A stretch of DNA of 64,000 nt from the NCBI RefSeq assembly GCF_030013205.1, contig NZ_CP122648.1; one strand, 5' to 3'. The position numbers and the translations under genes were made by a program. Positions 26,174 to 28,416 of this stretch are shown one piece after another (the first letter of the stretch is position 1; each line of letters starts with the position of its first letter). The notes under the pieces are model-generated. The model ran no database searches and was not told the origin of the DNA. It saw nothing but the letters and a program-made list of their open reading frames with translations. Origin of the DNA: Escherichia coli. GTDB taxonomy: Bacteria > Pseudomonadota > Gammaproteobacteria > Enterobacterales > Enterobacteriaceae.

Positions 26174-28416
26174 ATGAAACTGAATGCAACTTATATAAAA
26201 ATACGTGATAAATGGTGGGGCTTCCGCTGTTCCTGCCTTCTTTAATCTTGCCCATTTTCGCCCACATTAATACTTTCGCGCATATTTCTTCCGGTGAGGT
26301 TTTTCTCTTTTATCTGCCTCTGGCTCTGATGATCAGCATGATGATGTTTTTCAGCTGGGCGGCATTGCCAGGGATCGCCTTAGGGATTTTTGTCCGCAAA
26401 TATGCAGAGCTGGGTTTTTACGAAACGCTCTCATTAACGGCTAATTTTATTATCATTATCATTCTCTGTTGGGGCGGTTACAGGGTCTTTACTCCCCGGC
26501 GTAACAACGTTTCACATGGTGATACCCGTTTAATTTCCCAGCGTATATTCTGGCAGATTGTGTTTCCTGCAACGCTGTTTCTGATACTTTTCCAGTTTGC
26601 TGCGTTTGTAGGATTACTGGCGAGCAGAGAAAATCTGGTCGGCGTCATGCCTTTTAACCTCGGGACCTTAATCAATTATCAGGCCTTACTGGTGGGCAAT
26701 CTGATTGGTGTCCCGCTGTGCTACTTCATCATTCGTGCAGTGCGAAATCCGTTTTATTTACGTAGTTATTATTCGCAATTAAAACAGCAGGTTGATGTAA
26801 AAGTCACCAAAAAAGAGTTCGCACTCTGGCTACTGGCATTAGGTGCTTTACTGCTGCTGTTATGCATGCCGTTAAATGAAAAAAGCACAATTTTTAGCAC
26901 CAACTATACCTTGTCATTATTGCTGCCCCTGATGATGTGGGGAGCGATGCGCTATGGTTATAAGCTAATTTCGCTGCTCTGGGCGGTCGTGTTGATGATC
27001 AGCATCCACAGCTATCAAAATTACATTCCCATTTATCCTGGCTATACCACGCAGCTGACCATAACCTCCTCCAGTTATCTGGTATTCTCTTTTATTGTCA
27101 ATTATATGGCTGTACTGGCAACCCGTCAGAGAGCGGTAGCCAGACGCATTCAGCGGCTTGCGTATGTGGACCCGGTGGTTCATCTGCCAAATGTTCGCGC
27201 CCTGAATCGCGCGTTGCGTGATGCCCCCTGGTCTGCGCTTTGTTATTTACGCATCCCTGGCATGGAAATGCTGGTTAAGAACTATGGCATCATGCTGCGG
27301 ATTTAATACAAGCAAAAACTTTCTCACTGGCTGTCACCCTTGCTGGAACCGGGTGAGGATGTTTATCAGCTTTCGGGTAACGATCTCGCGCTGCGACTGA
27401 ATACAGAATCGCACCAGGAGCGCATTACCGCACTGGATAGCCATCTCAAGCAATTTCGTTTCTTTTGGGATGGAATGCCGATGCAACCGCAGATTGGCGT
27501 CAGTTACTGCTATGTGCGCTCGCCAGTGAATCATATCTACCTGCTGCTGGGAGAGCTAAATACGGTCGCCGAGCTTTCCATCGTGACCAACGCCCCTGAA
27601 AATATGCAGCGTCGCGGGGCAATGTATTTGCAACGCGAATTGAAAGATAAAGTCGCGATGATGAATCGGCTACAGCAGGCGCTGGAACACAACCATTTTT
27701 TCCTGATGGCCCAGCCGATTACCGGTATGCGTGGCGATGTCTACCATGAAATTCTTCTGCGTATGAAAGGTGAGAATGATGAACTGATCAGCCCCGACAG
27801 CTTCTTGCCGGTCGCGCACGAATTTGGTTTATCGTCGAGTATCGACATGTGGGTCATTGAACATACGCTGCAATTTATGGCTGAAAACAGAGCGAAGATG
27901 CCCGCTCACCGTTTTGCCATTAATCTGTCGCCAACCTCGGTATGTCAGGCTCGTTTTCCCGTTGAAGTCAGTCAGCTGCTGGCTAAATATCAGATTGAAG
28001 CGTGGCAACTTATTTTTGAAGTCACCGAAAGTAATGCTCTGACCAATGTTAAGCAGGCGCAAATCACCTTGCAGCATCTTCAGGAATTAGGCTGCCAGAT
28101 TGCGATTGATGATTTCGGCACCGGCTACGCCAGCTATGCGCGGCTTAAAAATGTGAATGCCGATCTGCTTAAAATTGACGGCAGTTTTATCCGCAATATT
28201 GTGTCAAATAGTCTGGATTATCAGATAGTGGCGTCGATTTGCCACCTGGCGCGAATGAAGAAAATGCGGGTAGTGGCAGAGTACGTTGAAAACGAAGAGA
28301 TCCGCGAGGCGGTGCTCTCTTTGGGGATCGATTATATGCAGGGTTATCTTATTGGTAAGCCGCAACCGTTAATTGATACGCTGAATGAAATCGAACCCAT
28401 TCGCGAAAGTGCCTGA
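26174..28416 (+). pseudogene. pdeF: c-di-GMP phosphodiesterase PdeF (YfgF; MASE1 membrane domain, degenerate GGDEF, EAL), with a 5' frameshift and an in-frame TAA stop
   Basis: ATG at 26174 encodes MKLNATYIKIRDKWW then shifts frame in a G-run (26217-26220); main ORF 26212-27306 ends at TAA 27304-27306 and the same frame continues (YKQKLSHWLSP...) to 28416; total span equals a 747-aa gene minus 1 nt. Confidence 0.8.

Follow-up and report, generated by a model that had tools for sequence, protein, structure and literature searches.

Whether the pdeF (yfgF) locus of an Escherichia coli chromosome segment still specifies its enzyme, or has been lost through real and inherited mutations, was the question raised by the sequence analysed here (the window, a stretch of 64,000 nucleotides). 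In E. coli K-12 and Salmonella, PdeF is known as an FNR-induced c-di-GMP phosphodiesterase with a MASE1-GGDEFdeg-EAL arrangement (Lacey et al. 2010, as described in the papers citing it), and the same system was studied further by Lacey et al. 2013 (PMC3718329). The sequence comparisons described below indicate, with a probability of roughly 0.9, that 26174-28416 is a true inherited pdeF pseudogene and a marker allele of the porcine edema-disease O139:H1 ST1 clone and its close relatives, in which a stop codon would have come first and a slip in a G run second.

Two Lesions Interrupt the pdeF Reading Frame

The following features were assigned to the coding region.

26174..28416, + strand: pdeF (yfgF) pseudogene, 2243 nt compared with 2244 nt in the intact gene
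26174..26245, + strand: residual ORF of 23 codons, opened by the native start and closed by TAA (from the translation)
26212..27306, + strand: 364-aa ORF created by the frameshift, comprising the MASE1 domain and a linker (ORF list)
26217..26220, + strand: run of four G (five in intact alleles), a 1-nt deletion, Leu17fs*8 (alignment)
27304..27306, + strand: TAA ochre codon for CAA, Gln378*, located 5' of the degenerate GGDEF and EAL domains (alignment)
27340..28416, + strand: 358-aa downstream ORF with a TTG start and an undamaged EAL domain (ORF list, Pfam, and NCBIfam)

The original prediction held that the frame opened by ATG 26174 is lost at GGGG 26217-26220, that a long ORF resumes at 26212 in another frame, that an in-frame TAA at 27304-27306 breaks an otherwise continuous frame, and that the span falls one nucleotide short of 747 codons plus a stop. 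All four statements were borne out. Translation from ATG 26174 gave MKLNATYIKIRDKWWGFRCSCLL and stopped after 23 codons at 26243-26245, and the loss of frame at the G run was seen in the sequence, in the translation, and in the ORFs. The 364-aa ORF was found to run from ATG 26212 in the downstream frame to the TAA, after which the pdeF frame was free of stops until TGA 28414-28416. The counted length of 2243 nt equals 748 codons minus 1 nt.

The alignment with a reference allele that had been proposed as a check was performed over 26100-28450. The closest intact allele was that of strain 7/2 (protein WP_001521043.1, 747 aa), and the window differed from it at exactly the two predicted sites, by G5 to G4 in the run and by C to T at 27304. 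In gene coordinates, for which we use HGVS-like names in our own numbering from the strain 7/2 alignment, the first lesion is a one-G deletion in the run at c.44-48 (codons 15-16), p.Leu17Phefs*8, with the stop at codon 24, and the second is c.1132C>T, p.Gln378*, changing CAA to TAA. An uninterrupted frame of 747 codons is absent from the window, being broken by the frameshift at codon 17 and by the ochre codon at 378.

The identity of the gene, also claimed at the outset, was supported by its context, its RefSeq label, and its sequence. A megablast search with window 26100-28450 found pdeF in 5425 of 5426 complete E. coli genomes, always on the chromosome and always on a feature annotated as pdeF. 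On its upstream side lie yfgI, yfgH, yfgG, and an ORF of 50 codons, and on its downstream side ppx and ppk1; the order yfgG-pdeF-ppx-ppk1 is annotated in the identical RefSeq genomes, and ORFs for yfgG (25631-25822) and ppx flank pdeF in the window itself. The window allele is nearly identical to an annotated intact PdeF gene, the two lesions being its sole differences from the gene for WP_001521043.1. In intact PdeF, Pfam placed MASE1 at residues 15-320 and EAL at residues 498-730. No GGDEF domain was detected by Pfam in intact PdeF, consistent with the degenerate GGDEF described between MASE1 and EAL (PMC6510439). None of the NCBIfam equivalog models for the name PdeF reached its cut-off, and only generic EAL-family matches were obtained; the name therefore rests on homology and synteny. 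Compared with PdeF (YfgF) of K-12 and Salmonella, the window locus shares the position, the FNR box and TAGAAT promoter, the domain order, and the encoded KKE 213-215 and EAL motifs, whereas its frame is broken twice (Leu17fs and Gln378*) and no enzyme can be read from its start codon.

The Promoter Is Intact, and Candidate Restart Sites Are Weak

Two promoter elements precede the gene.

26033..26046, + strand: FNR box TTGATATATATCAA of the pdeF class II promoter, intact (match to TTGAT-N4-ATCAA)
26068..26073, + strand: -10 element TAGAAT of the pdeF promoter, intact (read from the sequence)

The match to TTGAT-N4-ATCAA at 26033-26046 was the single one in the 64-kb window, and its spacing to the -10 element fits a site centered at -41.5. 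The same elements, an FNR site and a TAGAAT hexamer, make up the class II promoter of E. coli yfgF (PMC3718329). The locus is probably still transcribed anaerobically from this intact FNR promoter.

The native start yields a 23-residue peptide only, and as judged from the reading frame the catalytic EAL domain is impossible to obtain from it. Rescue by ATG 26212, which is in frame with the downstream sequence, was considered and rejected: this codon has no Shine-Dalgarno (SD) sequence, it is nested in the short native-start ORF, and the TAA removes the EAL domain in any case.

A more elaborate possibility is a functional split gene, with a MASE1 protein made from ATG 26212 and/or a soluble EAL fragment made from TTG 27340, ATG 27475, or ATG 27481. 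In its favor, neither ORF is interrupted or damaged, the translation preserves the EAL motifs, and the promoter is in place. The best restart candidate after the TAA, ATG 27481, is preceded by a moderate SD-like GGGATGGA (-6.4 kcal/mol, about the 5th percentile of the local background), and the motif KKE 213-215, on which the c-di-GMP-independent activity of the YfgF MASE1 domain depends, is retained (PMC3718329). Against these points, the anti-SD duplex at ATG 26212 is +0.6 kcal/mol, and this codon is contained within the ORF of 23 codons. When ribosomes have to restart internally some 170 nt beyond an ochre codon, initiation is inefficient in the absence of coupling. The missing further decay is uninformative, as the allele differs from an intact one at the two lesions only; and in the Korean genome K_EC180 a deletion in the AAAAAA run encoding part of KKE suggests a lack of constraint, unless it is an assembly error. 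We therefore regard a functional split gene as very unlikely. A trace of soluble EAL fragment from a downstream restart is conceivable, both halves of the gene being still open ORFs, and nothing was found in its support.

The Lesions Are Shared by a Porcine Lineage

Thirteen of the 5426 complete E. coli genomes searched were identical to the window over all 2351 bases of 26100-28450. These 13 double-lesion RefSeq genomes represent the porcine O139:H1 ST1 edema-disease clone and its relatives, from France, Belgium, and the Netherlands; they include W13-16 (wild boar, France), ETEC4079 (Belgium), and ETEC6334 (Netherlands). K_EC180 from Korea carries the double-lesion allele with one further deletion. 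PGAP/RefSeq labels the identical sequence "frameshifted; internal stop" in W13-16, ETEC4079, and ETEC6334, and K_EC180 bears the same label. W13-16 and P15-25 have been reported as O139:H1 ST1 edema-disease strains from France, sequenced with PacBio RSII and Illumina MiSeq (PMC8798679).

Each lesion was then followed with an 81-mer. Among the 5426 complete genomes, the exact TAA 81-mer matched 17, every one of them of pig or wild-boar origin. The exact G4 81-mer likewise matched 17, namely 14 of the TAA genomes and three duck isolates; the search with the G4 81-mer returned 18 records at no less than 99% identity, compared with 17 listed at 100%. With pdeF itself found in 5425 of the 5426, such a distribution is not one of chance. 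About 5390 other complete genomes, obtained with every sequencing technology, matched the G4 81-mer imperfectly, and among the matches listed the difference was one extra G, which argues that the G-run site is not a systematic miscall. In an exact-sequence look-up, the 364-aa ORF was found on 61 contigs indexed in 81 blocks, nearly all of them of draft size (10-200 kb). This ORF exists only when G4 and TAA occur together and is therefore diagnostic of the double-lesion allele. Three draft assemblies were identical to window 26000-28450 base by base.

An assembly error, with GGGGG at the run and CAA at the stop in the actual organism, had been named at the outset as the finding that would undo the prediction. 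Some ground exists for suspecting one or both lesions to be a sequencing or assembly artefact in a gene that is really intact. A homopolymer indel such as the G-run lesion is the commonest long-read error type, and singleton homopolymer indels do occur in the genome set, at window positions 26809 and 55296 in K_EC180, at 38995 in ETEC6334, and at 40490-40494 in the window itself, where a private deletion in focB means that some indel noise may be present in its assembly. However, the TAA is a substitution common to 17 complete genomes, and G4 is found in 14 of them, from France, Belgium, the Netherlands, and Korea and including hybrid PacBio and Illumina assemblies. G4 also recurs in many draft assemblies and tracks two SNPs phylogenetically, and the one extra G in the listed matches among the other genomes points the same way. 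An artefact is thus extremely unlikely; the comparisons across genomes, countries, and assembly types contradict it and indicate that the pdeF lesions are real and inherited rather than assembly noise.

The Stop Codon Most Likely Preceded the G-Run Deletion

The two lesions had been predicted to be independent, and each was found on its own. The TAA with an intact G5 run occurs in EC556, EC571, and EC581 (Japan, pig), which are annotated with "internal stop" only, and in other assemblies, whereas the deletion occurs without the TAA in the duck strains. The exact 377-aa product of this intermediate TAA and G5 allele was found on 33 contigs in 46 index blocks; its sources include one assembly derived from SRA data and a pair of unrelated GenBank drafts. 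Because the product recurs in unrelated assemblies, the intermediate allele is not the peculiarity of one laboratory. The extra G was the sole difference between the window and the intermediate-allele drafts that were aligned.

The order of events was examined by aligning window 26001-56000 with five clone members and the outgroup CFSAN018748, which has an intact pdeF and 137 fixed differences. Across this 30-kb alignment, all G4 sequences sampled had derived bases at 39286 and 46681 in common. EC556 had the ancestral bases at both positions together with two private changes, and the outgroup was likewise ancestral. The cosegregation of G4 with 39286 and 46681 marks it as an inherited clade marker nested in the TAA lineage. 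On the basis of one outgroup, five relatives, and 30 kb of sequence, the slip in the G run most likely followed the nonsense mutation. The opposite order, with G4 arising first and reverting precisely on the EC556 branch, was set aside, as it requires one extra event.

In the three duck isolates, G5 to G4 is the only one of the two lesions, and their allele differs from the window allele by 39 other substitutions, so their deletion is an independent event. This recurrence, and the occurrence of both run lengths within the TAA lineage, are what could be said for the G run as a phase-variable contingency switch turning pdeF reversibly on and off. Next to no credence can be given to such a switch: a five-G run is short for high-frequency slippage, G4 is clade structured rather than interspersed (G4 and G5 being split by clade-defining SNPs) and is found in only 17 of about 5400 genomes, the downstream TAA blocks the product at either run length and would make switching pointless, and the marks of a contingency locus, a long tract with unstructured length variation among close relatives, are missing from a tract of 4-5 G.

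Expected Consequences of PdeF Loss

The preferred reading, a pseudogene inherited through two ordered hits, can be laid out as follows. As the distribution of the alleles and parsimony show, a C to T transition in the ancestor shared by this lineage converted Gln378 to an ochre codon. The degenerate GGDEF and the catalytic EAL domains were thereby cut off, leaving at most a 377-aa MASE1 membrane fragment; because both domains lie downstream, the ochre codon removes the whole cytoplasmic output module. In the subclade that includes the window, one G was then lost from the G5 run, presumably by replication slippage, so that translation ends after 23 residues. This frameshift removes all PdeF sequence past residue 16. 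The second hit most likely represents neutral decay, the gene being dead by then and the run mildly prone to slippage. The intact FNR promoter would probably drive anaerobic transcription, yet no PdeF phosphodiesterase would be made, and with it would go any role of PdeF in anaerobic c-di-GMP turnover, motility, surface remodeling, peroxide tolerance, and MASE1-dependent aspartate behavior. For the last of these, a c-di-GMP-independent effect of PdeF MASE1 that requires KKE 213-215 has been reported (PMC3718329).

The original prediction also expected altered c-di-GMP-dependent phenotypes. This is a reasonable inference, and the effect would probably be modest because PdeF is one of many E. 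coli phosphodiesterases, including its paralogue PdeA, and is anaerobically induced. PdeF was below detection in an aerobic expression survey of GGDEF/EAL proteins, in keeping with its anaerobic induction (PMC5635695). PdeA (YfeA), the aerobic paralogue, has the same MASE1-GGDEFdeg-EAL architecture but is encoded at a separate locus, and it has been proposed to give way to PdeF at the transition to anaerobiosis (PMC5635695; PMC6510439). PdeA might partly compensate for the loss of PdeF. In the anaerobic pig gut, a clone without the anaerobically induced PdeF may differ slightly from the rest of E. coli in c-di-GMP balance, motility, and oxidative-stress handling.

We consider it very unlikely that PdeF loss is pathoadaptive in the edema-disease clone and that the second hit was itself selected. 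If this were true, a MASE1 membrane protein standing alone under FNR control, with KKE 213-215, would be left by Gln378* on its own, the codon-17 frameshift would have been favored for silencing this orphan sensor fragment, and a hyfD nonsense mutation found in the clone members examined, 21.5 kb away, might reflect the same anaerobic gut remodeling. Selection of the second hit for silencing the MASE1 fragment is conceivable and unsupported.

The pdeF allele is already known in the sense that public annotation records both lesions, and it is an ordinary lineage-specific pseudogene. The O139:H1 genome papers searched (including PMC8798679) do not mention pdeF or pseudogenes, and the rdar-variant papers searched do not mention pdeF. 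A match to yfgF in a gallium-evolution paper concerned IS5 inserted between yfgF and yfgG in K-12 and was discarded as unrelated. The lesions provide clean nested typing markers of modest practical value, the TAA for the O139:H1 ST1 lineage and G4 for one major subclade. They do not make any open question newly testable.

Other Broken pdeF Alleles in E. coli

Single GGDEF/EAL genes are known to be lost sporadically from one E. coli lineage or another, and the present searches yielded four further broken alleles of pdeF. A nonsense mutation at codon 353 in another background was present in 269 index blocks and in one complete genome, that of pig strain PE164, and a 1-nt deletion at nt 868 in a third background was present in 403 index blocks and six complete genomes, all from human isolates. 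The other broken alleles examined were 37-54 SNPs away from the strain 7/2 allele. A cluster of C-terminal PdeF fragments at 90% identity had 758 members, some of which are partial genes at contig ends. Of about 5420 complete genomes, no fewer than 27 carry one of the tracked pdeF lesions (17 + 3 + 6 + 1); this is a lower bound from four lesion-specific 81-mers together with the TAA 81-mer, as the genome hit tables carry no pseudogene flag.

Like that of the window, the other broken alleles are due to point lesions particular to a lineage, which leave the gene divided between a MASE1 ORF and an EAL ORF. They differ in position and background, and the window allele consists of two ordered hits, whereas the broken alleles found only in short-read-sized drafts had one lesion each among those examined. 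One long-contig assembly (L021) combined the codon-353 stop with two extra deletions. pdeF is a near-universal core gene that is sporadically broken, and the window allele is unusual only in its two ordered hits.

Additional Features of the Window and Related Genomes

The hyfD gene for hydrogenase 4 subunit D (48907-50346, - strand) has a TGC to TGA change, Cys148*, with the stop at 49903-49905. This stop was common to all five clone members examined, where RefSeq labels it "internal stop," and hyfD was intact in the outgroup CFSAN018748. This gene, a member of an operon for anaerobic metabolism situated about 21.5 kb from pdeF, is a second pseudogene present clone-wide.

Several single-base deletions in homopolymer runs were also observed. 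In the window, focB (40328-41175, - strand) measures 848 nt compared with 849 nt, a base being missing from a G6 run at 40490-40494, which is a C run for Pro-Pro-Pro on the coding strand, and the frame shifts near residue 228. The deletion was private to the window among six relatives compared, including the closest match ETEC4079, and arose either by very recent mutation or through a homopolymer error in assembling the source of the window. The extra deletion in K_EC180 (window-equivalent 26809) affects 1 nt in the AAAAAA run encoding Lys-Lys of KKE 213-215; another singleton deletion in an A run of the same genome, at window position 55296, was also noted, and these changes may be further decay or long-read errors. 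In ETEC6334, bepA is labeled "frameshifted" as a result of a singleton T-run deletion (window-equivalent 38995) that was not seen in the other relatives compared, and in its sibling ETEC6333 the match to the region extended over all 25001 bases. The bepA deletion is probably assembly noise, and the case illustrates that homopolymer indels in this genome set need corroboration.

Upstream of pdeF, the outer-membrane lipoprotein gene yfgH, two genes 5' of it, is split by IS1 in the window and in ETEC4079 and intact in W13-16; the region of about 24026-25320 contains the fragments 24026-24367 and 25126-25320 and an IS1 transposase CDS at 24422-25119. A prophage remnant extends from window position 1 to about 23251 and adjoins yfgI, with several of its genes annotated as partial. 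Its genes include those for replication protein P, NinX, truncated capsid proteins, a T7 gp14-like core protein, an SLT transglycosylase, holins, a GH19 endolysin, and a DUF2514 protein. In W13-16, yfgI is instead directly adjoined by guaA, and duck strain BL12 likewise has a DUF2514 phage gene at this junction. For one prophage gene, the annotation "exodeoxyribonuclease VII large subunit" appears to be a misnomer. Farther downstream, a transposase gene of the IS200C family (57504-57962) lies between bamC and purC.
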